Shown piece after piece: positions 5,416-33,091 of a stretch of 64,000 bases of DNA. The stretch comes from Shigella phage Moonfish. The stretch lies in sequence record PQ613263; one strand, written 5' to 3'. Within the stretch, counting starts at the first letter, position 1; each line of letters starts with the position of its first letter. The notes below the pieces were generated by a model that did no database searches, was not told the DNA's origin, and saw only the letters and a list, made by a program, of their open reading frames with translations. Position numbers and translations under genes: made by a program.

Positions 5416-6636
5416 ATGACTACGGAAGCTGCAACCACAGCTTCCGACATTCTCGCAATGTCGGATGATGAGATTCTGAATATGGAAGCCCCAGCAGTTA
5501 TTGCTGAGGAAGATACTTCCACTCAGAACAACCCAGAAACCAACGGCGTACAGACTCCTGCTGAAGAAGTTGACACCCCTGCTGTTGAAGACCAACCAAC
5601 CGAAGAAACCTCCCCTGAAACTGAGCCAAACGAAGAAGATGCAGCAAATGCTTTAACTTCTGATAAAGTTGATGATAAAGTTGTCGACACAGAAGTTGAT
5701 AGTAACGGTAAGCCGATTACTAAAGCTGAACCTTCTACTGCTGAACCAGGCCAGGAACAGAAAGAAGAAGGCAAACAGTCTGAAGGTCTGCCTGCTGACT
5801 TCAACTATAAGGAAGGTTATGAGAAGTTGATGGCTCCTTTTAAAGCTAACGGCAAAATGATTACTCCCCGTTCACCGGAGGAGGCCATTAGCCTGATGCA
5901 GATGGGTGCTAACTATACTCGCAAGATGCAAGAACTTCAGCCGTACCGTAAGGTAATGCTGATGTTACAGAACAACGGTTTAATGGATGAGGATAAACTT
6001 TCTTACCTGATTGACCTGGATAAGAAGAATCCTGAAGCTATTAAAAAGTTGCTGAAAGACTCTGGTACAGATCCTCTGGAATTTAATCCAGATGAAGAAA
6101 TTAACTACCAGGGTGGCAATCACCGTGTTACCGACACCGAAGCAGATTTTGCAACCGAAATTGACGACTTAAAGTCTACTCAAGAAGGACAAGCTACATT
6201 AGGTGTTATCGGCTCGACGTGGGATGCTGCCAGTAAAGATGCTCTTTATCAGAATCGTGGTTTACTTCAGACTATTCACGAACAACGTGAGAATGGTATT
6301 TATGACACCATTGCTAACGAAGTGAATCGTCTTCAGATGTTAGGCCAGATTCCGGTTGGTACTCCGTTCATTCAGGCGTATAACCACGTTGGTAATCTCC
6401 TTGCACAACAGGGAGCATTTAACCAAGTGGCTAAGCCAGAACCAGTACAAGCAGTTAAGCCAGTGGTTCAGCCGGTAGTGCGTGTAGCACAACCCAAGCA
6501 GACCCTGACTAACAATGAGCAAGCTAAAGCAGCTTCCCCTAGTCGGGCTGCTACACGTAAAGCAACACCTATTGTAAACCCACTCGCTATGAGTGATGAA
6601 GATTTCGCTAAACTCCCAGTACCGGGTAGTCTTTAA
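5416..6636 (+). CDS. Putative scaffolding/head-assembly protein
   Basis: Highly acidic, low-complexity N-terminal third (E/D/T/P-rich); immediately upstream of the major capsid gene. Confidence 0.3.
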   Translation: MTTEAATTASDILAMSDDEILNMEAPAVIAEEDTSTQNNPETNGVQTPAEEVDTPAVEDQPTEETSPETEPNEEDAANALTSDKVDDKVVDTEVDSNGKPITKAEPSTAEPGQEQKEEGKQSEGLPADFNYKEGYEKLMAPFKANGKMITPRSPEEAISLMQMGANYTRKMQELQPYRKVMLMLQNNGLMDEDKLSYLIDLDKKNPEAIKKLLKDSGTDPLEFNPDEEINYQGGNHRVTDTEADFATEIDDLKSTQEGQATLGVIGSTWDAASKDALYQNRGLLQTIHEQRENGIYDTIANEVNRLQMLGQIPVGTPFIQAYNHVGNLLAQQGAFNQVAKPEPVQAVKPVVQPVVRVAQPKQTLTNNEQAKAASPSRAATRKATPIVNPLAMSDEDFAKLPVPGSL

Positions 6637-9478: not shown

Positions 9479-12121
9479 ATGGGCTTATTCAGTGGGAAGA
9501 CCAAAGTATACGTAGCATCCTCTGTCTATAACATGGCAGGGGATATACAGAAACGTCCAAACTATATGAAGACTGTGGTCATTGGTAAGATTGTTGCTGA
9601 TACAGGATTTACTATGGCAGACACTATCTCTGATAGTTATCTGAATGGACCGGGCATTCGTATGCGACTGTTCTCCGGCTGGAGTAAGAACCACTATGAC
9701 TCAGTAGTTGGTATGGCAGGTTCTTCATTAGGTGTACTAGCTAAGATTGACCCTACTGTTATAGAGGGACAAATTACCCCACCTGCTGGAGAATCTGTCT
9801 ATGTTCAGGCAGCAGAGATTGGCTTTGCTGACTTTGAACAATGGTGTGACCAGTATCTTTATGAGAATGCCCCTAGTCGAATCATGGAACGATTCGACGT
9901 AGACATTGATGAAGATACTAATGAGATTACTATGACCTCCTTAGATGGAGGTTCTACTATTACATTCACACCTACTAACTTTGAACCAGGTGCTTTGTAT
10001 CTCTATGCTGATTACACATTCTATAAGTCCCCTTCTACCAATCCACCGGTAGTAGGGCCGACTACTGTCTACGATGATGAAGATGACCTACCTTCTACTT
10101 TGTTATGGACTACCGTTTCAAGTGATACTACAGCTAATACAACCAATCTTACTAAGACTATACAGACCCATTCTGTTTACTCTGATGGCAGATCGGATGA
10201 AGATAGTACTGTTACTGAACCAAGTGTGGATAACTGGAACTCCTACGTTAAGGTTTATCGTAGAGGATTCACTGAGAAACCCAATGATGTAACTGTAGTT
10301 GTATCTGACAGGGTAATGACCCATACAAAGTTTGGTGAGATTCAAACCAGTACTGCTGTAACTACCAATGTTGTTGATTTAGGTGGGGGTGTTACCCGTA
10401 CTGACACAATCACTACAACTACAGAGACACTGGTTCGTAAGTATTCATCCCAGACTACTCGTACTGATACTGAGATGACTGCTGTTGGTACACCTAAGCT
10501 GCTTATCTACAAGCAGAACTCCGGTAATGTTGCTCTGGATTCACTGTTTGAAACCGAGGCTACTGATAACCGATTCTACCCATTCATCCCAATCAGGAAT
10601 GATAAACAGTGGGTAGAAAATGACCCAATCTACCCGTACTGCAAGAAGGCTCTTTATAAAGCTACTGGTGGTAAACTCAATACAGTAATGACTGAGCTTA
10701 AGAAGAATGAGGACATAGGTGATATTCAATACATTTATGGCTCATTCGGTGTGTCTCTTAATACCCCAGAGGATACTGCTAAGGAATACATCTATCGTTT
10801 CTTTCAGATGGCTACTGAAGCATTCCCACCTGACCCAACCTACCCTACATTGGAAGCAGTGATTGCAGGTTATCAGGCAGCAAATGATGCAGTTGATGAA
10901 TATGTAGCATGGTGGAACAGGCAGGAAGGTCAGATTGTTGGAACACCCCCTCCACTGCCAGAATACCCAGTCATACCTAAACGAGAGTTTAGGGTACATA
11001 GTAATAAGCAGTACAAGTACGACATGACCATTGGCTGGAACTATGTATCTGAAACTACTCATTCAGGTGAAGCATGGTCTGGTGCTAAGCAGGGACAACT
11101 TCGAGCCAGATATGCAGGAGATATAACTCTTACTCGCAAGAACATACGTACAGGTGCTAACAACAAACTGGAAGTTACTACTACGTTTTACTCTATGCAG
11201 GAGTACGAGTTACTTTGGCAGGATGGTAATGACACTTACCGTAAACTTAGAGTACTGGGTCTAAATCACAATAACAGGGTATACAAAAATAAATCAGTAA
11301 GTATTGACGTTGCCGAAGCAATGGGTGATGCAGAAGAGAGTGGTTTCATTATTCCACTGCACACTAACATCTACCGTTCAATGTCACTGGTTCGTAGTAC
11401 CCAATTGTCTACTGCTTGCTCTTACTTAGTGATGAACTCATATAAGAAGGTTAAGCAGAAATGGTATACATCATCTGCATTTAAGATTGTGGTTGTTGTA
11501 GTTGCTGTTGTTGTATCCGTATTCACTATGGGTGCTGGTGGTGCAGGTATTCTTGGGGCATATGGTGCAGTTGGTGCATCACTTGGTTTTGTTGGATTAG
11601 CTGCTGTAATAGTGGGTGCTGTAGCAAACGCTATTGCTGCAATGATTCTGGTATCCATCATCACTAAAGTATCCACTTCACTGTTTGGTGATAAGCTGGG
11701 CTTTATTGTTGCAGCTATTGCTTCAATGGTGGCTATGAACGTTGGTACTGCTATGTCTACTGGAACATCCTTATCCACCTTAGCTGGTGAGATGATGAAT
11801 GCCCAAAACATCATGCAGCTTACTAGTTCAGTAGGTAATGGTATTAGTCAGTATATTAATGCATCCACGGCTGCTACTATTCAGAAAGCAGAGAGTGTAA
11901 TGCAGCAGTACAATACTGATATGATGGCAATCAATAAGCAGTATGAAGAGATGTTTGGTACTGCTGGACAGGGTGTAATTGACCCTATGCAATTTGTGTC
12001 AATGGAGTCGTTGGATTCTTTCTTATCACGTACTCTTATGACTGGTTCAGATATAGCTGACATGTCTTTAAACATGGTTGGAAGCTACTCTGATATGACT
12101 CTTAATACAGACCTTGTTTAA
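9479..12121 (+). CDS. Large internal virion protein with Gly/Ala-rich hydrophobic C-terminal segments (N4 gp53-like by position)
   Basis: 880 aa; Thr-rich central region; C-terminal VVVVAVVVSVFTMGAGGAGILGAYGAVGASLGFVGLAAVIVGAVANAIAAMILVSIIT predicted membrane-inserting. Confidence 0.45.
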   Translation: MGLFSGKTKVYVASSVYNMAGDIQKRPNYMKTVVIGKIVADTGFTMADTISDSYLNGPGIRMRLFSGWSKNHYDSVVGMAGSSLGVLAKIDPTVIEGQITPPAGESVYVQAAEIGFADFEQWCDQYLYENAPSRIMERFDVDIDEDTNEITMTSLDGGSTITFTPTNFEPGALYLYADYTFYKSPSTNPPVVGPTTVYDDEDDLPSTLLWTTVSSDTTANTTNLTKTIQTHSVYSDGRSDEDSTVTEPSVDNWNSYVKVYRRGFTEKPNDVTVVVSDRVMTHTKFGEIQTSTAVTTNVVDLGGGVTRTDTITTTTETLVRKYSSQTTRTDTEMTAVGTPKLLIYKQNSGNVALDSLFETEATDNRFYPFIPIRNDKQWVENDPIYPYCKKALYKATGGKLNTVMTELKKNEDIGDIQYIYGSFGVSLNTPEDTAKEYIYRFFQMATEAFPPDPTYPTLEAVIAGYQAANDAVDEYVAWWNRQEGQIVGTPPPLPEYPVIPKREFRVHSNKQYKYDMTIGWNYVSETTHSGEAWSGAKQGQLRARYAGDITLTRKNIRTGANNKLEVTTTFYSMQEYELLWQDGNDTYRKLRVLGLNHNNRVYKNKSVSIDVAEAMGDAEESGFIIPLHTNIYRSMSLVRSTQLSTACSYLVMNSYKKVKQKWYTSSAFKIVVVVVAVVVSVFTMGAGGAGILGAYGAVGASLGFVGLAAVIVGAVANAIAAMILVSIITKVSTSLFGDKLGFIVAAIASMVAMNVGTAMSTGTSLSTLAGEMMNAQNIMQLTSSVGNGISQYINASTAATIQKAESVMQQYNTDMMAINKQYEEMFGTAGQGVIDPMQFVSMESLDSFLSRTLMTGSDIADMSLNMVGSYSDMTLNTDLV

Positions 12122-14631: not shown

Positions 14632-17600
14632 TTGAACAGGAAACATGCTATGTCAACATTTGACCGTCTGGCAGGTTTCGCAGACAGCATCACTAATGCC
14701 AAGCAAGTCGATGTCTCTACTGCAACCTCTCAGAAGCAAGCTGCACAAGGGCAAAGCCCTTTCCAATTAACCCCAGAGAATGCTTACAATCTCCAGACTG
14801 GACGTGTAGGTAATCTTGGAACTGGTGCATTCGAACCAGGTTCACTTCAGGCTGACTTCACTCAAGCCTCCCCATTAGAAATCATTAATAAGTACGGTAA
14901 TGAGAAAGGTTTACAGATTCTTAATAGCCGAGCTAATGCTGCTGATGTTGTACGTCAGGACTTATCTAAACAGCGTACTAACGCAGAAGCATTTGGCGAT
15001 ACTCTTTCTGGTGTTGGTCTTGGTGTTGCTAATACCCTTGGGGGCATTGCTGCTCTTGGCACAGGTCTGGTCAATGATAATGCCGGGGCATCCATTGCTT
15101 CCGGGATGGATTGGCTGAATGAAGGTGTACGCAATCTCCAGTCTGATGCACTGAATGCTACCCGTAAAGTTGTTCAGAATCAGAACCAGATTTCTGCTCA
15201 AAAGAACCAGAAACTTTACGAGCAAGATATTAAGAATGGGGAGAACGATTTGGTTGCCTCCCTGTCTCGCATTGGTCGTGACGCTTTTGATTCTGTTGCT
15301 AATACACTTGATAATGGTATGGCTGCTACCGATGGACTGAGCGAAGGTGTTGGTTCCCTCTTTACTGCTGGTCCACTTATCCGTGGTGTGTCTGCATTAG
15401 GTAAAGTAATGGTTGGTGGTGATAAAGCTGTTAGGGGTATTACCTTAGCTGCTGAGTTGGGTTCACGTCCTGCACAGGTTGCACTGTCTGCTGGTCGCGT
15501 TGCTGCACCTGCTATTGCAATCGGTGGCATGGAAGCAGGTGGTGCATACCAACAGACTGCATCTGAAATCATGAAGATGTCCCACCAAGAATTGGCAAGT
15601 AAGTCTCCTGTTTACCAACAACATATTGCTGATGGTTTACCTCCTGATGAAGCACGTCGTCAGACTGCATCTGAAACAGGTATCACTGCTGCTGGCTTAA
15701 CTGCTCCAGTTGCTGCTGCTACTGGTCCACTGGTATCTCGCTTTGAACTTAACCCACTTAGAGTAGGTTCACTGGCTGGTGCTGGTTCTAATATGTTACG
15801 TGAGACTGTAGAAGAAGGTATTCAATCCGGCTTTGGTCAGTTCGCACAGAATACTGCAATCAAGGAAAATGTTGATGCATCCCGTGACACCCTCAAAGGG
15901 GTCGGTGAGCAAGCAGGGCTTGGTGCACTCTACGGCTTCGGTAGTGCTGGAGTTGCTCAAGCTCCTGGTGCAACTGTTAAAGCTGCTGGTGCTGCCACTG
16001 CTCCTGTTGTACGTACTACCCTGGCTGGTGCTTCTCTGGTTGGTAATGCATTAGCTAAAGCTGCTTCCCCTATTACTAACATTCTGGTTCAACGTGGTGA
16101 AGAAGTTGCTAAGCGTAATGAACAAGCATCCCCTGTAGCTGATGCTACGGTTAATGCTGCTGCACAAGAAGCTACTGCTCAGGCAGAACAAGCACAAGCG
16201 ACTGTACAGGAAGCAGTAGATGCAATGGATATCTCTCCTGAGGAGAAGGCTGCTGCTACTCAGTATGCTGCTGACTTAACTCAGGCAATGAACTTTGACC
16301 CTGTAGAATTGGAACAAGCTAACCCGGTAATTCGTGAAGCTGTTTCTGGTTCCACTAACCGTGTTGAAGCTATTCAGAAGATGGCTGACTTGGTTAATAC
16401 AGCAGAAGACCCTAACGTTCAAATGGAAGCTGCTATCCAGATGTATGACAACATCATGTCTATGGATAGCTTCATTAACCGTGACCCAGGTGCACTGGCT
16501 AATCTGGAACAGGGTTCACCTGCTGCTACAATCGTAGACCAGTTCTCTGGTCTGATGGCTAACGTACAGAATACACCGAAGGTACTTCGTGCATTCCGTG
16601 CTATCCATTCCATGATTCAGGAACAGGCTGAAGCAGGTAAGCTGAAAGCTACTGAAGAAGCTAACCAAGCTCAAGCAAACAACATTGCCATGGCTGCTGA
16701 CGTGTCTCCAGAAGTATTGGATGCAGATTCAGTGAACATGGTTCTGAAACATGCAAGTGAAGGTAAGATTACACTGGGGAATCGTCAACGTGCTGCCCTG
16801 CAATCTGCTGCTGCCTTGTTACAGGGTGCACGAGAGTTTGACGCTAAAGCAGAAGAACTAGGCTTACGTCCTCAAGACATTGTTAGTAAACAAATTAAAA
16901 CCGACGAGTCTCGTTCTAACGAAGGACAGTACTCTGCGTTGCAACATGCGAAACGCATTCGTTCTGCGTATAACTCTGGTAACTTCGATTTGGCTTACGC
17001 TTATCTGAGCGACTTTATGAAGTTCGCCCAGCACATGCAGAATAAGGTCGGAGCGTTGAATGAGCATCTGATTTCTGGGAATGCGGATAAGAATAAGTCT
17101 GTTCATTATCAGGCTCTCTCGCCTTCCCGTGAATGGGTACGTAGTCGTACTGGCCTCGGTGTCAATCCTTACGATACCAAGTCTGTTAAGTTTGCCCAGC
17201 AAGTAGGACTGGAGGCCAAAACCGTAGCTGATATTGCTAACGCACTTGCTACGGCTTACCCGGAGCTTAATGTTTCTCATGTGAAAGTTACCTCGTTGGA
17301 TTCACGTCTGAACAAGCCAGCTGCCCAGGTAGTTAAAGAGTTCCGTCAAGGTGGTCTTGATGCCACTCAGTCTCAACAGACCAATGAACCAGTGAATCAG
17401 GTTGATGAATCTCCTGCACCAGTGCAAGAGGACACTACTACTGTACAGCCTAAAGCTAAACCTGTGGTAGAAAATAAGACTGCTCCTACTAAGGAGACTA
17501 GCCCAAAAACAGAAGAAGTCTCTACTACCAAGTCTGAAACAGTAGAAGCTACCCTCACTAATGAGGATACCATCCAGGAAGTAGCTGAAACCAAAACAGA

Positions 17601-20600
17601 AATGGAAACAGTGTTCCCCGTCTATAACAATGAAAAGACACCGAACCAGTTCCTGAAAGCATTTACCCTACCAGAAGAACCTAAGTCTCGTACCATTGGT
17701 TCTGAGTCTCCGTTGACTGATGTTAAGCAAGCACTGTCTTCTGTTGCTCGCTTTGAAGCATTCACTCAAAAAGAAAATAACGCTCTCACAGGTGATGTGA
17801 TTAAGCGTTATCAGGACTTAATGGACTTTGGTGAAACTCTGAAGACTACTTTGTCTGAACGACTGGCTAAGTTCCTTGCTAACAAAAATGTCGGTAAACG
17901 TTTTGCAGAAGGTACGGAAGCTAACCGTTGGGTAGGTGGCAAACTACTGAATATCGTTGAACAAGATGGTGACACCTTTAAGTTCAATGACCAGTTGTTA
18001 GAGACTGCTGTGCTTGCTGGTCTGCAATGGCGACTAACTGCTACACAGAATGCTGCTGTTAAAGACATGAAAGACGTAGCTGCTATTACGGGTGTAGAAG
18101 CATCTCTGTTACCAGAAGGTATTCTGGCTGAGTTCGAGAATGCTCAGACTCTGGTTGAAGCTACTAACTCACTGGCTCAGAAGATCGAATCCTACTGGGG
18201 TTTGAACCGTAACCCTAATGCACCACTGGGTTATACCAAGGGTATCCCAATGGCAATGGCTACAGAGATTCTGTCTTCCCTCATTGAGATGGGTGAAGTT
18301 AAAGAGTCTATGCTGGATGTGTCTGAGATTGACCCAGATTCCAATAAGACTGTCGGCCTGTATACCATTGAGAAGCTGGATGACAATGATGCCATTAACA
18401 AATTCCCTACTGCTATTGAGGAAGCTGTCCTCTTAGAACCAGAAGAGAAAATGTATTTCGGTGACGACATTCCTTCCGTGGCTCAAACTCAATTACGTAA
18501 TCCTGCTGTTAAGAATACCCCGGAACAGAAAGCTGCTCTGAAAGTAGAACAGGCTACTGAGTTCCGTGTACACATGCCGATGGTTAACTTCTATGAAGCT
18601 ATGGGCCGTGACAACATACTGGAATTGATGGGTGCTGGTTCTCTTAATCCTGAACTGTTGAACGTGAACACTGCTAAGTCACTGGAGGGTAAAAACCTGT
18701 CCGTGTCCATGGCATATGATTCCTTGTTTGGTGTAATCAATCAGATTAAGGAACAGGAGAATGGACTAGATACACCTATCCACTATGGCTACAACATGAC
18801 CCGTGTAGGTCGTATGCAGATGCTTGGTAAGAACAACCCACAGTCCAGCAAACTGGTACGTGAAGCAATCCTGCCAACCTTCTCTACTATTGACTTGAGT
18901 AATGAAAACAGCCAAACGTTCTCTGACTTCCAGTTAGGTCTGGCTCAGGCATTGGGTATCAAGGTTCATAATATGTCCCGTGAAGCTATGTCTGAAAAGC
19001 TGACCAAAGCTTTGGAAGGTAATCTGAAACCTGCTGTTGATATGATGGTTGAGTTTGATAAGTCTGGTCACTTACCTGCTGATGCAGTTGATATTCTGAA
19101 GACATCTCTGGGTGGCGATAAATCATTCGTAGCTCTCATGGCTCTTATGGAATATGCCCGTTACCTGAACAGTGATGACCGTGCCAACTTTAATACCCCT
19201 CTGTACGTTGAAGCCGATGGTGTAACCAACGGTCCGATTAACGCAATGGTATTAATGACTGGTGGTAAGTTCACTCCAGACTGGATTAAGAATACTGCTA
19301 AAGGTGGTTTGTTCTTCGGTAAAGCTGGTAAGACTATGAACGAACATCGTTCACAGGATGACAGTGTTGACTTGTATGAAGCATCCACCAATGGTCTGCA
19401 ACAAGCATTGGGTGAATTGCGTAGTACTTACCGTAACAACGTTCCTGTTATGAGCCAGATGAACCATCTCCAGAAGTTAATGGACCTGTTCATCAAAGAC
19501 TTTAACTTGAATGAAGACGGTACTTTGGACCTGAAACGTGGTATCGCTAAAAACCCACTGACTATTACCATCTATGGTTCTGGTGCACGTGGTATTGCTG
19601 GCAAGATGGTTAGTGCAATTACTGACACCATCTATGAACGCTTCAGTGACGTTCTGCAAGCACGTGCTGCTGACCCTAGCATTTCCCCAGCTATGGCGAT
19701 GTTTGGTAAGGAGGCTGCGTCTGAGGCTGATGCTCAGGCTATGCTGGATACTTTCCTTACTTCTATGGAAGCACTGACTGGTAATGTTCCAGTTATGCGT
19801 AAAGGCGAACTGTCTATTCAACAGGCAGAAGGTGCTCTGACTGGTAAGTTAGACCCTCAGAAGTTTACTGTATCTGGTAATGCCTTGAAGAACCTACAAG
19901 AGAACATGCTTCACTTGTTCGTTGAACCAATGCGTACAGGTATCCGTAATACTGTTGGTGAAGGTCTGATGCACTCTACTGAGAACTTGCAGAAGGCTAC
20001 TCAGATTCAGTCTCTGGTATTGCAGGATATGTTCCAACAAGCAGTACAGGCTAAACTGGCAGAAAAAGAAAATGACCCAACGTGGAAGAAGGGTGATTTC
20101 TTAACACAGAAAGAACTGAATGAAATTCAGGAATCATTATCTCCACTGGCTCCAATGATTGAGACTGGCGCACAGACTTTCTACATTGCTGGCAGTGAGA
20201 ATACTGATGTTGCTAACCAAGTACTGGCTACCAACTTAGATGACCGTATGCGTGTGCCAATGAGCATCTATGCCCCGTCACAAGCAGGTGTTGCTGGTAT
20301 TCCATTTATGACCATCGGTACTGGTGATGGCATGATGATGCAGACCCTTTCTACTATGAAAGGTGCTCCGAAGAATACCCTGAAAATCTTTGATGGCATG
20401 AACATTGGTATCAATGACATCACTGATGCAAGCCGTAAAGCTAATGAGGCTGTATACACTTCCTGGCAGGGTAACCCTATCAAGAATGTTTATGACTCCT
20501 TCGCTAAGTTCATGAAGAATGTAGACTTCAGTAAACTGTCTGATGAAACCAAACAGGCTATCGCTAAGTCTGCTCTGGAATACGACCAGCGTGAAGGTGC

Positions 20601-28200: not shown

Positions 28201-28677
28201 TTAACTACGTTTCAGGCCAGCGAACAGTGAAGGTTTCGCAGCAGGTTTCTCTGCTGGTTCTTCAACCTTAACTTCTTCCTGCACAACTTCTTCTTGTGCT
28301 TCTGGTTCAGCTACTGCTTCTTCTTCTACAGCAACTTCTACTTCAGGTTCCGGCGTAGAACTCTCGTTCTGACCACCAGTAGAGGTCTGGGTTTCCTCTT
28401 CCTTTACCTCTTCAGCCTGAGCTTCTTCTTCTTCCTCTACAACTTCCGGTTCTACCGGACGATGTTTGGCTTCCTGAGGGTTCTTACGAGGACGACGTGT
28501 CTTCTTACCTACCAAGGGTGGAGTATCATCGTTATGATTTACCTCTTCGTTGATACCAACGGAGGCTGTACCATCTGCATTGATGACAATACTAATGTCA
28601 CCAGCAAGATTGATTTGATCATCTACATAAGCCTGTACAGCAGCTTCTACTTCGGACTGGTTCAAAATGATTTGCAT
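28201..28677 (-). CDS. Highly acidic Glu-rich low-complexity protein
   Basis: 158 aa; ordered N-terminal 45 aa then EEEEEAQAEEVKEEE-type tracts. Confidence 0.4.
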   Translation of the reverse strand: MQIILNQSEVEAAVQAYVDDQINLAGDISIVINADGTASVGINEEVNHNDDTPPLVGKKTRRPRKNPQEAKHRPVEPEVVEEEEEAQAEEVKEEETQTSTGGQNESSTPEPEVEVAVEEEAVAEPEAQEEVVQEEVKVEEPAEKPAAKPSLFAGLKRS

Positions 28678-28678
28678 G

Positions 28679-29233
28679 TTACGCCTTTAATAATTTAATG
28701 AGGTTCTGGAAAGATGGGAGATTTACACCAGCGTGGATTGCACCGATTGCATCAGCCAAGTGCTCATTCTTATTTAGAAGTTTGCCTTTCTTATCAGTGA
28801 GCCAGTTGGCTTCAGGATAAATGGCATGAGCAGCACGAATCATCGTGTCTTTGGATGCAGTCTTATCACCGACCAGTGCAAGTTTGTTTTCAATTGGGGA
28901 TACTTCAAAGATTGGACAACCCAATGCACGAAATGCACCGATTAATCCTACGCATACACCATAGGACTTCATACCGTTAGCGGACTGAGAGCCTACTGGT
29001 ACTTCTACGAATACTGCTTTAGCAGACCGTAACCATTCCTCACAACCAAGAAACAAATCATGAGAGGCTTGTATATCTTTGGAGTTGGTTCGAACTTGTT
29101 TGTTGTGGTCAACTTCAGTTTGAACCAGTTTAAGTTCGACCTGCTCGAAGACGCCGGACTCAATGTCCAGCATCCCACGAGCTAAACCCCAATTGCGGAG
29201 ACTAATATCTGCACCAACAATTGGGATTTTCAT
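28679..29233 (-). CDS. RuvC-like Holliday-junction resolvase
   Basis: N-terminus MKIPIVGADISLRNWG (RuvC-like first acidic motif) and C-terminal HLADAIGAIHAG. Confidence 0.45.
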   Translation of the reverse strand: MKIPIVGADISLRNWGLARGMLDIESGVFEQVELKLVQTEVDHNKQVRTNSKDIQASHDLFLGCEEWLRSAKAVFVEVPVGSQSANGMKSYGVCVGLIGAFRALGCPIFEVSPIENKLALVGDKTASKDTMIRAAHAIYPEANWLTDKKGKLLNKNEHLADAIGAIHAGVNLPSFQNLIKLLKA

Positions 29234-30030
29234 TATTTCTTACCGAACAGTGATTTACCACCTGCCGGAGCAGGACCAGTGTTAGCACCCGGTTTAGGAG
29301 GCAAGCCACCTTTACCATTACCACCAGCAGAACCCTTGGTCTTATCACGGGTTTTACCTTTGTTCTTTTCCAACCATGCTGTATGGAATACAGCCAGTTC
29401 TGGGGTCAGTTCTTTCTCAGCCTTCTCTGCTTCCTGAGCCTCGATGACTGTGACCAGCAGTTCCGGGTGAAACACTTTCTGAATCTCGTTTACTTCACGA
29501 GTTTCACCAGAGTCAACGTAACCGTTGTCACCTTTAACCTGCTTAGCTTCCAGAACCTTTTCCAGAGCAAAGGTAACAGTCTGACCTACCAGTTCAACTG
29601 GAACCATGACAGACTTGTTGGTTTCTGCTTTCAGGTCAAAGTCATAGACTTTAACAATCTTCTCTTCGAAGTCAGCATCCGGCAGTTCATTACCAGTAGC
29701 CATCAGCATCATGTCATTAATGACAGTGTAACCAGGCAGGAAGTATTCTTTACCGTTCTTCTCGTAAGTCGGCTTGTTGCCTTTAGCATTACCAGAAGTG
29801 AAGTACACCTGGGCACGGAACTCACCAGCATCATTTCCATCGGAACCTTTCAGGTTTTCGATGATTAACTGCATCCAGTCTGCACCGGAGTCAGCTTTAC
29901 CTACGTAAGCTACTTTTACAGTACCGGTATAGATATCAGTTTCTTTGGCACCGAAGCCACCACCACCAAGGGAGTCTTTTGCAGCTTCAACGTTTTTGGT
30001 TTTTTCTTTCAAGTTACCGAACAGTGACAT
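29233..30030 (-). CDS. Single-stranded DNA-binding protein (N4 gp45-like)
   Basis: 265 aa, matching the N4 SSB length as I recall it; Gly/Lys-rich flexible termini; sits in the replication module. Confidence 0.45.
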   Translation of the reverse strand: MSLFGNLKEKTKNVEAAKDSLGGGGFGAKETDIYTGTVKVAYVGKADSGADWMQLIIENLKGSDGNDAGEFRAQVYFTSGNAKGNKPTYEKNGKEYFLPGYTVINDMMLMATGNELPDADFEEKIVKVYDFDLKAETNKSVMVPVELVGQTVTFALEKVLEAKQVKGDNGYVDSGETREVNEIQKVFHPELLVTVIEAQEAEKAEKELTPELAVFHTAWLEKNKGKTRDKTKGSAGGNGKGGLPPKPGANTGPAPAGGKSLFGKK

Positions 30031-30071
30031 AGTATTTTTTCCTATTAAGTGATTAACAACCAGGCAAACGC

Positions 30072-30824
30072 TTAAGCGTAGTATTCAGCCAGATGGTCTA
30101 AGAGTTTTTGAGCGTCATTATCAATGTACGTCTCTGATTTATCGAACATACCCATTGGGGAACGTAAGCGTTTACCAACAGACTTCTTGGTTGGGCGAGT
30201 CTGGAATACGTGCTTATAGCCTAAGTCACGTTCTTCTTCGGTAATTTCAAGCATCTTGTTGCCATACTTCTCCAGTTCTTTAATGTCTACACGTTCTGCG
30301 TAAACCACTGTAGAGAAGTATGCCTCAAGGCCATTATTCTTCAGGGAGCCTTTCACTGGGATGAAGGTTTTCATCACACCAGCTGCCTCGTCGAGTTCAT
30401 CTTTGGCATGAGCAGTAATGATTACAGGCTTACCAAACTTAACAACTTTCTGTTGCAGCAGTACTTTAAAGAACTGTGCAAAGTCTCCCCAGGCTTTCTG
30501 GGTATTAGCAGATGGCAATACATATTGTGATTCCAACATGTCCATCATGAAGGTAGCAGAGTCGATAATGATACCATCAACATCGTCTGCCATTTCCCCA
30601 CCCGGAGATGCAACATCAAATGCTTCCCAAATCTGATATGGGTCTTCAATGTTGTAGGTGTTGAACTTATTACGGAAAGGTAGGCGTTTACCTGCTTCAG
30701 TATTCAGATACAACCAGCGTTCCTGGTTACGAATATTACGCAGTGATGCTGATTTACCACTCGCTGAAAATCCTGCAATCAGGATTAGCTGAGTGTTCAT
30801 ATCATTGGAAATTTCTTCGGACAT
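30072..30824 (-). CDS. P-loop NTPase (putative replication/recombination ATPase)
   Basis: Walker A LILIAGFSASGKS; 250 aa. Confidence 0.45.
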   Translation of the reverse strand: MSEEISNDMNTQLILIAGFSASGKSASLRNIRNQERWLYLNTEAGKRLPFRNKFNTYNIEDPYQIWEAFDVASPGGEMADDVDGIIIDSATFMMDMLESQYVLPSANTQKAWGDFAQFFKVLLQQKVVKFGKPVIITAHAKDELDEAAGVMKTFIPVKGSLKNNGLEAYFSTVVYAERVDIKELEKYGNKMLEITEEERDLGYKHVFQTRPTKKSVGKRLRSPMGMFDKSETYIDNDAQKLLDHLAEYYA

Positions 30825-30880: not shown

Positions 30881-33091
30881 TTATTTGCCAGCGTAGCGTT
30901 TAGCCACAGTGACCATTACGGTTGCATTCAATTCATCATCTGGTAATGGATTAGCCAGTTTCTTATTGAATGAGTAGACGGATTGTTGTACTTGAGCAAA
31001 GTCCCAACCACTGTCTACTAATGCCAGTGCGTACTTAATCATTTGATTATTACGATTACCGGAGGCAATGCGATCAGCGAACCAACGCTCCAGATTGTCT
31101 AACGACTGAACTTCCTTCATCTGGTTCTGGAACTGCTCGTTCTTACTGGTACGAGGAATAAAGTCACGCACGTCCAACAGATTCGCATCAAGGTTGTAAT
31201 GATAGGAACCAGTTTCACAGGACATCCACTTCTTGGCTCGTTGGTTAGCAGACTCATCCGTTTCGAATGGTAGCCAAGCCATAACGTTATTCATGAACTC
31301 TTTATACTCCTCAGTATCGAGGTGTAACTCATAGTTCATTGGAATAATCAGACGGAAGCGGTTCTCTTCATCAGTATGACGCTTAGTGGTATAGGTCATG
31401 AACTTATAATCCTTCATTAGTTCATGGCACGTATGCAGTGGTACTCCACCATCACAATCAATAACAATCATGTTAAATCCTGGAATCACGTTCTCATCAG
31501 AACGATGTCCATTCTTCATGTGATGGTTCACCCAGTGCATACCGGGAGCTTGGGTTAATACATGTAGCTGGTCGAACGGTACGCGTTCACCAACATAGTC
31601 ATAAGCAAAGCTTTCACTATAAGCCACCAGCATCTCATTGGTGTCAGTCTCTTTCAGAGTTTCACCACGGAAGAACTCAATACCTTCATTGAATGTCTTC
31701 TTAATAATGATGTGCTGTTTGTAACCCCATGCTGTAGCAAGAGTCATCATCTCATTGCGAGCTGCATTACCACTCTTATAGAACGGTAAGGACTCCAGCA
31801 AGTCAGCATGGGTTACTTCTTTCCCTACTGAAGCAATATACTTAGCCAGCTTCACATAGGCTTTTTCACGATTGAGGATTGTCTGGAATGCTGCCCCGGA
31901 TTCCTCTACAAGCAGGATTGCTTGTTTGAGGTGAGCCATCTCAATGAATGAACTCTGGTCAACAAACGCCAGTGCACCTGCTAGCTTAAGAGCTTTGAAG
32001 TAACGATGGGATATTTCAGCCTTACGAATTTCTTCGTGGTCAGCCATAGCTTCTGCTTGTTTCTCACAATCAATTTTGTAAGTAATCAGAGCAATACCCA
32101 CTGCATCTTCCACAATCATCTTAAAGCCAAACAAGTTTGGGTCAGCCAGACTATGGAAGTGGTTAGCCCACTTACCAAGAGACTGAACGTTATCCTGCTT
32201 AATCAGGTTACGGTAGATTTCTTCAGGAGTCAGTGTTGCATGTGCTCGCTTGTCTAAGTGCCCGATGGCAAACAGGCAACGACGAGCATACCCTGTATCA
32301 AGGAAGTCATAGAACTGGTCTTCAGTTTGCCCACCATCCAGCAGCTTACTCGGAGTACCGAACAGCAGTAGGTTAGCAGGAGTTTTACCATCCAGTTCTT
32401 CGCCACGAACACTTTCAGCAGTGTTCTTGGTTAACTTCTGTTTTACTTTCCCCTGGTCATATAACTCAAGGAACAGGTTAAGTACTTCAACGTTGGCAAT
32501 AAGGTTGGAACCAATCTCGTCAATCTGTAGGTTAATGCCACCACAACCAGCCATAAGCAGTTTGTGACGGAGTTGTTTTACAGCAGGTGCTGTACCAGAG
32601 TCGAATGTGAATGGGAATGCCCCAGCACGTTTATACTCTGCTTCAACTTTATCGAACTCTTCCTGCTGGTCAGTACCCTGACGTGCAGAACGTTCGTTAG
32701 CAATCTTCCATAGACGGTCATTTGCAATGACGGGCATGGTGTCTTCCATAAAACGTTTACGGAAGCCAGTCATGAACCCGTCTTCAATGATATTTACTGA
32801 GTGACCTTTACCGAAACCAGATGTAGCCAACGCCATAGCGTAGATGTTTACTGGCAGGTCACCACGGTCTTTAGTTACGATGGTTGCACCCATGCAGGAT
32901 GCCATTTTAGCCAAGAAGTAGGCTACTTCGACACGGAAGAATCCCCGGTCGTTATTCTGGGTTTTATTGCAGAGCACATCTACGATTTCTTCAATCGCCG
33001 GATGATGCACTACTCCGGTAAGGTCAATACTCATGATGGAAAATATCTCTCTCTTTGTTTGCAAATGGACGCGACAGGGCAATATAAACAA
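30881..33091 (-). CDS. Putative DNA primase (N4 gp43-like)
   Basis: 736-aa ORF between the ATPase/SSB genes and the polymerase; size and position match the N4 primase. Confidence 0.4.
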   Translation of the reverse strand: MFILPCRVHLQTKREIFSIMSIDLTGVVHHPAIEEIVDVLCNKTQNNDRGFFRVEVAYFLAKMASCMGATIVTKDRGDLPVNIYAMALATSGFGKGHSVNIIEDGFMTGFRKRFMEDTMPVIANDRLWKIANERSARQGTDQQEEFDKVEAEYKRAGAFPFTFDSGTAPAVKQLRHKLLMAGCGGINLQIDEIGSNLIANVEVLNLFLELYDQGKVKQKLTKNTAESVRGEELDGKTPANLLLFGTPSKLLDGGQTEDQFYDFLDTGYARRCLFAIGHLDKRAHATLTPEEIYRNLIKQDNVQSLGKWANHFHSLADPNLFGFKMIVEDAVGIALITYKIDCEKQAEAMADHEEIRKAEISHRYFKALKLAGALAFVDQSSFIEMAHLKQAILLVEESGAAFQTILNREKAYVKLAKYIASVGKEVTHADLLESLPFYKSGNAARNEMMTLATAWGYKQHIIIKKTFNEGIEFFRGETLKETDTNEMLVAYSESFAYDYVGERVPFDQLHVLTQAPGMHWVNHHMKNGHRSDENVIPGFNMIVIDCDGGVPLHTCHELMKDYKFMTYTTKRHTDEENRFRLIIPMNYELHLDTEEYKEFMNNVMAWLPFETDESANQRAKKWMSCETGSYHYNLDANLLDVRDFIPRTSKNEQFQNQMKEVQSLDNLERWFADRIASGNRNNQMIKYALALVDSGWDFAQVQQSVYSFNKKLANPLPDDELNATVMVTVAKRYAGK

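Follow-up and report, generated by a model that had tools for sequence, protein, structure and literature searches.

Gp47 of an N4-like Shigella phage: an acidic, resolvase-linked member of the Bes2 family with a terminal peptide resembling those of the phage SSB

The gp47 locus

The DNA analysed here, called the window, is a stretch of 64,000 nucleotides from Shigella phage Moonfish (sequence record PQ613263), in which a minus-strand open reading frame (ORF) at 28201-28677 encodes a small and extremely acidic protein. This ORF is the orthologue of gp47 of phages G7C and N4 (phrog_7641), and its product is called gp47 throughout; the same family is regarded as including Bes2 of Pseudomonas phage Ab09, a protein that helps its phage to evade bacterial immunity. 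The window is Gamaleyavirus DNA (G7C-like, N4-like Schitoviridae), with 91-93% DNA identity to G7C-like coliphages over positions 27700-30100. On the minus strand the genes follow the order primase, Sak4-like protein, SSB (a protein that binds single-stranded DNA), RuvC-like resolvase, gp47 and small membrane protein, and the gene of the virion RNA polymerase (vRNAP) completes the list of elements referred to below:

30881-33091, minus strand: primase (gp43)
30072-30824, minus strand: gp44, Sak4-like AAA_24 annealase (PF13479, E 6e-11; phrog_124, E 8e-50)
29233-30030, minus strand: gp45, N4-type SSB (phrog_743, E 3e-89)
28679-29233, minus strand: gp46, RuvC-like Holliday-junction resolvase, orthologue of Ab09 Bes1 (phrog_159, E 3e-42)
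28201-28677, minus strand: gp47/Bes2-family gene, 158 amino acids (phrog_7641, E 1.4e-60)
28031-28192, minus strand: small transmembrane protein, directly downstream of gp47 (phrog_19025)
14632-25002: vRNAP, an ORF of 3456 amino acids

The gp47 ORF runs from an ATG at 28677 to a TAA at 28201-28203. Its product contains 33 Glu, 19 Val, 17 Ala, 12 Pro and 10 Gln residues, with a net charge of -25 and an isoelectric point of 4.24; the Glu fraction (0.21) is the highest among the 67 window ORFs of at least 100 amino acids, and the most negative 70-residue stretch of the window (-26) lies within this protein. The second most acidic stretch of that length (net -21) belongs to a 406-residue ORF of the late strand (about 5416-6636, plus strand). 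The gene is genuine, having more than 600 homologues and an N-terminal domain and C-terminal tip that are conserved in distant phages, and the plus-strand ORF at 28294-28698 was dismissed as an antisense shadow of the GAA-rich sequence. Tandem DNA repeats were searched for as a source of the acidic region and none explain it, while promoter and terminator scans around gp47 stayed at chance level.

An AlphaFold2 model computed from an alignment of 18 family members, together with the charge distribution, divides gp47 into four parts:

28543-28677, minus strand: N-terminal globular domain, residues 1-45, an alpha/beta domain of beta-alpha-hairpin topology in which I3, E9 and G36 are nearly invariant
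28456-28512, minus strand: basic patch, residues 56-74, KKTRRPRKNPQEAKHRPV, net charge about +6
28243-28452, minus strand: disordered acidic linker, residues 76-145, net charge -25, 40% Glu
28204-28242, minus strand: putative C-terminal docking tip, residues 146-158, AAKPSLFAGLKRS, basic-hydrophobic, net charge +3

Residues 1-40 were modelled with a predicted local distance difference test score (pLDDT) of 83-91 and comprise a helix (7-21) and the strands of a hairpin (28-32/38-42), whereas residues 80-141 stayed below a pLDDT of 50, had no secondary structure and are predicted to be disordered. The original prediction, made from the sequence alone, had described a highly acidic, Glu-rich protein encoded next to RuvC-like and SSB genes, with a short ordered N-terminal domain, and had called for an analysis of disorder and charge; in all these respects it agrees with the results above. 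It had also described more than 100 residues dominated by Glu, Val, Ala, Pro and Gln, which holds in terms of composition (66% of residues 51-158 and 81% of residues 76-145), although the tail is not uniform, being interrupted by the basic patch and closed by the basic-hydrophobic tip. No fold match was found for the N-terminal domain, no Pfam family matched gp47 at E values up to 0.1, and comparison with PDB sequences returned nothing beyond low-complexity noise, the matches to ribosomal uS2 and histone H1 being rejected as compositional.

A conserved family with a variable acidic linker

The assignment of the ORF to the gp47 family is based on full-length profile homology, on its slot downstream of the resolvase between SSB and vRNAP, and on its architecture. 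The G7C orthologue, annotated as gp47, a hypothetical protein "similar to N4 gp47", occupies the same position in its locus; the N4 and G7C proteins share position and domains with gp47 of the window, whose DNA is about 92-93% identical to that of G7C-like phages. Among close homologues (n=120), the tip hardly changes at all, whereas indels in the acidic part make protein length vary from 145 to 162 residues, with a mode of 147; the window protein, with its 158 residues, has a longer acidic insert than is usual in this group. The EAKH(R/V)PVE motif of the basic patch is kept in the enterobacterial subfamily and in N4. When distant phages were included (25-member alignment), only six columns remained nearly invariant, namely I3, E9, G36, S150, L151 and F152. 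In a set of 119 diverse homologues collected by profile search, a tip defined as [SGTNA][LIM]F within the last 18 residues was carried by 116, making Ser-Leu-Phe (SLF) the most conserved element of the family. The linker sequence, by comparison, is not conserved and its length ranges from 32 to 185 residues, yet its net charge is negative in every one of the 228 members parsed (median -15 for close and -8 for diverse homologues). This pattern indicates that selection maintains the domain, the tip and a negatively charged linker, but not the sequence of that linker.

An exhaustive representative search with residues 1-78 recovered 14 true small relatives and two spurious matches, a 2990-residue VCBS-repeat protein and a MORN-repeat protein, which aligned with the "INADGT...DDTPP" hairpin and were discarded because repeats or composition account for the match. 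A gp47-type module was present in all 20 Schitoviridae loci that were read, although the family has been overlooked by orthology-based core-genome work. The N4 reference protein (NC_008720; L002:5009-5113, about 32,008-32,112) is annotated as ending in KPNLLCLQV, with KKYRKKRLKNQYKPNLLCLQV read before the stop codon. After an A-run, GAAGAAGAAAAGAAG, the alternative frame gives EVQEEEAKEPVQAKPSLFAGLKR and a stop codon, which restores the conserved family tip (KPSLFAGLKR); the reference probably contains either a sequencing error of one base or a genuine frameshift.

This distribution of conservation bears on the proposal, contained in the original prediction, that the protein may be a polyanionic DNA mimic inhibiting a host restriction enzyme or RecBCD directly, or else a histone-like chaperone. 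The extreme negative charge and its constancy in the linker speak for mimicry, as does the position of the gene in a locus that has been described as an anti-defence hotspot. Known anti-restriction mimics are, however, folded proteins: Ocr and ArdA, small and very acidic counter-defence proteins of phages and plasmids, are rigid mimics of B-form DNA, whereas the acidic part of gp47 is predicted to be disordered, and is rich in indels, and Pfam and PDB searches with gp47 revealed no relationship to Ocr, ArdA or further mimics. A rigid DNA-shaped scaffold is consequently a poor fit to a region so variable in length and sequence, and conservation falls on the N-terminal domain and the SLF tip instead of the acidic array. 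The family also occurs in hosts with very different defence repertoires, and nothing was found that points to a histone-like role. Direct inhibition by mimicry is therefore considered very unlikely, although a looser electrostatic, DNA-like role of the gp47 tail may exist, given that the linker is negatively charged throughout the family.

Constant association with a Holliday-junction resolvase

In the window the stop codon of gp46 lies 1 nt from the start of gp47. The SSB-resolvase-gp47 region was read in 20 loci of different genera, and in all of them the gp47-type gene was found directly downstream of a Holliday-junction resolvase gene, irrespective of the type of enzyme encoded. The partner is RuvC-like in N4, G7C and phages of Klebsiella, Achromobacter, Stenotrophomonas, Erwinia, Acinetobacter, Pseudomonas, Agrobacterium and Xanthomonas, and RusA-like in phages of Vibrio and Salmonella and in Klebsiella phage Pylas, Enterobacter phage EcP1 and Erwinia phage S6.

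In other lineages the association has become covalent. RusA::gp47 fusions, of which 59 were parsed, account for about half of the diverse homologues; they are 260-320 residues long and consist, domain by domain according to PHROG profiles, of a RusA-like domain (residues 1-135) and a complete gp47 module. Pfam did not recognise the RusA part, although PHROG profiles did. The fusions come from roseophages, rhizobiophages and other N4-like phages (phrog_14238, 1682, 21721 and 33948), and their C-terminal 150-170 residues correspond to the gp47 module, with N-terminal domain, acidic linker and an SLF or SIF tip, matching phrog_7641 and phrog_18842. The module is thus joined to a RusA-like nuclease in these phages, whereas in the window it is encoded by a separate gene that follows a RuvC-like nuclease. 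The module has thus remained beside a resolvase even where the enzyme itself was exchanged for a non-orthologous one, which is a strong argument that the two share a function. Pseudomonas phage Zuri (L012, MK863032, 38.5-41.4 kb) was considered as a further resolvase-gp47 fusion and rejected, its product labels apparently being shifted by one gene: the label "ssDNA binding protein" stands on a resolvase-sized ORF and "Holliday junction resolvase" on the gp47-type ORF.

A terminal peptide shared with the SSB

The SSB encoded two genes upstream of gp47 starts with MSLFGNLKEK and ends with GGKSLFGKK, so that peptides of the gp47 type are found at both of its termini:

29995-30030, minus strand: SSB N-terminal tip, residues 1-12, MSLFGNLKEKTK; [LIM]F within the first 8 residues in 110 of 120 SSB homologues
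29236-29259, minus strand: SSB C-terminal tip, residues 258-265, GKSLFGKK; carried by 119 of 120 SSB homologues

In these 120 diverse homologues the N-terminal motif is typically MSLFGNLK, and an alignment of 121 sequences shows no variation at residues F4, L261 and F262. The AlphaFold2 model of the SSB (predicted template modelling score 0.74) has a beta-rich core (residues 30-230, pLDDT above 90) with both tips on disordered tethers; the N-terminal tip was modelled at a pLDDT of about 59 and contains a short helix (5-10), after which residues 14-25 are disordered. No relative of the N4-type SSB was found in the PDB by sequence, and a Foldseek search with the core indicated a weak likeness to SSBs of the oligonucleotide/oligosaccharide-binding (OB) fold, the top match being the filament-forming plasmid protein PrgE (8s4s, E 2e-4, template modelling scores 0.28/0.50). 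The core carries a net charge of -12, and the C-terminal tail is basic, rich in Gly and Pro, and has a net charge of +8.

The C-terminal tips of SSB and gp47-type proteins vary together from one phage lineage to another, as illustrated by the following pairs (SSB first, gp47-type protein second, each running to the stop codon):

Litunavirus: ASLFS and GSLFS
Vibrio phage: GSLFG and TSLFG
Dinoroseobacter phage: KKSSLFDD and KKSSIFDVD
Salmonella phage: PTKSLFAK and PTKSLFARN
Acinetobacter phage: SGLF and TSLF
Erwinia S6: KSMFG and KSIFG

In the 19 phages whose tips were compared, similarity averaged 10.5 for matched pairs and 3.0 for mismatched ones, and the observed total was not attained in any of 200,000 permutations, although these figures overstate the evidence because the sampled phages are not phylogenetically independent. 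The result was unchanged with 15 less related lineages, and the number of residues following the Phe is also correlated between the two tips (Spearman 0.90, p 1.6e-7, 19 phages). Paired tips differ in their synonymous codons, which means that it is the protein sequence whose likeness is maintained, and not by way of DNA exchange; gene conversion was rejected as its cause on the same ground.

Elsewhere in the window, the ORF at 9-974, which ends in YSLF and represents the C-terminal part of a tail spike, was considered as a bearer of the motif and treated as a chance match. An 880-residue late protein (9479-12121, plus strand; phrog_2220) starts with MGLFSGKTK, resembling the LF peptide of SSB and gp47, which could be due to chance or make it a further bearer.

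Conserved, aromatic-bearing terminal peptides on disordered tethers are thus present in both gp47 and SSB, and in this they resemble the tails of T7 gp2.5 and gp4 and of Escherichia coli SSB (DDDIPF), where a disordered tail with a conserved terminal aromatic residue docks on partner proteins, as proposed below for the gp47 tip. T7 has tails of one kind on two different proteins of its replisome, both directed at a single receptor. The likeness does not extend to sequence: the T7 and E. coli tips are acidic, whereas those of the window are basic-hydrophobic (K/R-x-S-L-F-G-K-K or S-L-F-A-G-L-K-R, net positive) and have no acidic residues of the D-D-D-I-P-F kind; acidity is confined to the gp47 linker, and the phage SSB carries the motif at its N-terminus as well.

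Since [SD]LF is the 3' half of the QL[SD]LF consensus for binding the beta sliding clamp, and is found here at a protein terminus on a flexible linker, the tips might also be divergent clamp-binding motifs attaching the SSB and the resolvase module to host DnaN. However, in none of the 19 tip pairs is position 1 occupied by Gln or position 2 by Leu, Gln followed by a hydrophobic residue before [SD]LF being found in 0 of 19 SSB tips and 0 of 19 gp47 tips, and the residues flanking the tip vary with phage lineage even though DnaN is highly conserved. Moreover, N4 replication is reportedly independent of most host replication proteins (Guinta and colleagues, 1986). Clamp binding is accordingly viewed as highly improbable.

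A different possibility is that gp47 provides the SSB with an acidic tail in trans, the linker filling the single-stranded DNA (ssDNA) groove while the SLF tip anchors it, so that gp47 would act as a chaperone for free SSB or control its loading and hand-off. The N4-type SSB, with its basic C-tail, lacks the acidic C-terminal tail found in E. coli SSB, T4 gp32 and T7 gp2.5, and the universally negative gp47 linker could supply it; the gp47 tip resembles the N-terminal peptide of the SSB, and docking of terminal tails on the adjacent protomer is known from other OB-like SSBs that form filaments. The acidic tail of T7 gp2.5 is also said, by Marintcheva and colleagues in 2008, to compete with ssDNA for the binding cleft. 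This explanation nevertheless leaves the N-terminal domain and the resolvase fusion unaccounted for, the SSB core is itself negatively charged, and PrgE is only weakly similar to the SSB model in Foldseek; the explanation is judged quite unlikely.

Relation to Bes2 of Pseudomonas phage Ab09

A phenotype for this family comes from the N4-like Litunavirus Ab09, which infects Pseudomonas and in which gp61 was named Bes2 and the RuvC-like gp60 was named Bes1 (10.64898/2026.06.04.730250, a June 2026 preprint). Each of the two proteins, provided alone from a plasmid, rescues the evasion of Thoeris I, Thoeris II and CBASS II-A in a deletion mutant; neither binds or cleaves the signals cGAMP and His-ADPR, and the bes genes are not essential (10.64898/2026.06.04.730250). 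The model of Bes1 was aligned to RuvC 4EP4 with a root-mean-square deviation of 2.9 A, and the authors suggested that Bes proteins may alter phage development and not inhibit defences directly (10.64898/2026.06.04.730250). In Ab09 the trigger of Thoeris II is a late protein, the side tail fibre, whose effect Bes2 counterbalances without touching the signal (10.64898/2026.06.04.730250).

The resolvase gp46 of the window is 42% identical to Ab09 gp60 (E 2e-47). For gp47, an N4-type hidden Markov model (HMM) built from 35 family members, with no window or Litunavirus sequences among them, was run against 823 ORFs and matched exactly three, namely gp47 of the window (4e-24), Ab09 gp61/Bes2 (8e-13) and its orthologue YH30_41 (2e-12); N4 gp47 also matches Ab09 gp61 in BLASTP (E 1e-9). 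On account of these two results, gp47 of the window is regarded as a member of the Bes2 family. The two proteins, of 145 residues in Ab09 and 158 in the window, occupy the same slot directly after the RuvC-like gene and between SSB and vRNAP, and both consist of an N-terminal domain, a low-confidence acidic or Ala-rich linker and a C-terminal SLF matching the tip of their own SSB (gp61 ends in GGSLFS and the Ab09 SSB in ASLFS). They differ in the residues that follow the motif (SLFS in Bes2, SLFAGLKRS in the window) and in the linker, which is far more Glu-rich in the window, and the Ab09 domain is of the N4 type, a subfamily that carries an FxxTRxGDGG insert.

The general guess of the original prediction, that a polyanionic protein of this kind might be a counter-defence factor, fits these data; its specific mechanisms do not, since the homologue counters nucleotide-signalling systems, and neither restriction nor RecBCD is implicated.

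A docking model for gp47/Bes2

The results can be brought together in a model that is given about an even chance of being correct: gp47/Bes2 would be a middle-gene product of the Schitoviridae that works with the resolvase gp46/Bes1 and whose tip, tethered by the acidic linker, docks at the receptor of the SSB termini. The small folded N-terminal domain would stay with the resolvase, to which it is translationally coupled in the window and fused, as RusA, in other lineages. It would be followed by a long disordered polyanionic linker and by the short SLF peptide copying those of the SSB, and this tip would dock into a site recognising SSB termini, located either on the SSB-ssDNA filament or on a client of both proteins, for which the Sak4-like annealase, the polymerase and the beta' subunit of RNA polymerase are examples. 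Docking would couple the resolvase module to replication and recombination intermediates organised by the SSB, or allow the module to compete there, with the linker serving as a flexible spacer that repels DNA or imitates ssDNA.

Three candidate receptors are suggested by analogy. The SSB core is one of them because in PrgE and PRD1 P12 the filament is held together by terminal tails, which contact neighbouring protomers. The Sak4-like annealase gp44 may be another, given that in phage HK620 the cognate SSB recruits Sak4 through its last six residues (PMC5928155). The C-terminus of the host RNA polymerase beta' subunit might be the third, since activation of E. coli RNA polymerase at late promoters cannot do without the C-terminus of the N4 SSB (PMC4496689).

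The third candidate leads to a different reading of the same tip evidence, in which the gp47 tip competes with the C-terminus of the N4 SSB for the beta' C-terminal region and thereby delays or lowers the expression of late structural genes, so that less immune-activating tail-fibre and capsid protein is made. The gp47 arrangement, acidic disorder with a hydrophobic peptide after it, is reminiscent of classical acidic activation regions, and this reading fits the finding that a late protein, the side tail fibre, triggers Thoeris II in Ab09. Conversely, the RusA fusion and the constant pairing with a resolvase favour DNA transactions over transcription, Bes1 yields the same phenotype with a nuclease fold, and Ab09 grows well without the C-terminal tip of its SSB, which means that the tip is not essential for late expression in that phage. 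Competition for RNA polymerase is thus judged unlikely as the principal explanation.

Regarding immunity, the gain in survival conferred by the Bes family is probably due to less trigger being made through changed phage DNA or late-gene development, and not to direct inhibition of the defences. Combined with docking, this leads to a full chain of events, in which gp47/Bes2 would mimic the docking motif of the SSB, compete or join in at its receptor and reshape DNA intermediates or the timing of late genes, leaving the sensors with less trigger to detect; taken as a whole, this chain is doubtful.

Several observations weigh against the docking model and its extension to immunity. Direct similarity between gp47 of the window and Bes2 is weak (BLASTP E 0.021; A2-HMM E 0.041), the link between the two resting on the intermediate profile, synteny and architecture. 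The anti-signalling phenotype was obtained with a Pseudomonas phage and plasmid over-expression, and reported in a preprint (10.64898/2026.06.04.730250); evasion of Thoeris and CBASS having been measured in the Pseudomonas system only, we infer from family membership that it may extend to the coliphage gp47. Rescue of the Ab09 mutant by gp61 alone or by gp60 alone indicates that Bes2 is not merely a tether for Bes1. In addition, the delta-gp57-61 deletion of Ab09 (L021, HG962375, 41,096-42,899), as read from its reported coordinates, removes the 17 C-terminal residues of the SSB, ASLFS among them, and puts an out-of-frame tail in their place; a mutant devoid of both C-terminal SLF tips therefore grows well when immunity is absent, and the tip network is not essential in this phage. 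Finally, the enterobacterial gp47 tip (SLFAGLKRS) is closer to the N-terminus of the SSB (SLFGNLK) than to its C-terminus, and its match to its own SSB C-tip ranks low, to which the phylogenetic dependence of the phages sampled for the permutation test has to be added.

Neighbouring genes and other elements of the window

The gene directly downstream of gp47 (28031-28192) encodes a single-pass membrane protein of 53 residues. Comparable small transmembrane ORFs follow the gp47-type gene in N4, phiAxp-3, DS-1410Ws-06 and Pylas, among others, and ORFs of similar size occupy this slot in inbricus, OLIVR2, S6, XC38 and Zuri.

Two further minus-strand genes lie between gp47 and the vRNAP gene:

25477-25992, minus strand: Tad2-like gene (PF11195, E 6e-22)
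26084-26476, minus strand: gene of an N4 gp48/gp49-family protein (PF13876)

The product of the second gene and the Acb4-Sequestin sponge of Ab09 match the same PHROGs (322, 3934 and 16684). Both genes, Tad2-like and Acb4-like, are elements of the anti-defence hotspot described in the preprint (10.64898/2026.06.04.730250) and are present in the window too; judging from these matches, they are likely to have an anti-signalling role. The interval between gp47 and gp48 also contains a single tRNA-Ile gene with the unusual anticodon AAT (26817-26895, minus strand; ARAGORN), at a position where N4 has several tRNA genes.

Significance for the N4-like phages

Gp47 of the window is a conserved and ordinary representative of a family to which a name and a phenotype have recently been given. 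Its most informative features, the C-terminal SLF peptide shared with the SSB and the coupling or fusion to a resolvase, had been missed by the original prediction, and no description of the co-varying SSB-like tip, of the near-universal presence of the module in Schitoviridae or of the RusA fusion was found in the literature searched. The study that named Bes1 and Bes2 left their mechanism open (10.64898/2026.06.04.730250). Two handles on it are now available, an SLF peptide that co-evolves with the SSB and a resolvase that is an obligate or fused companion whatever its fold, and they make the mechanism approachable by point mutants and tip swaps. The same features bear on the older N4 question of what the C-terminal activation peptide of the SSB contacts and whether other phage proteins use that site. 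If the full chain of events from SSB mimicry to a reduced trigger is true, the resolvase module of all N4-like phages would be wired to the SSB through a co-evolving three-residue code, and mimicry of an SSB motif would represent a form of counter-defence that evades the sensor, being neither a signal sponge nor a signal-degrading enzyme.

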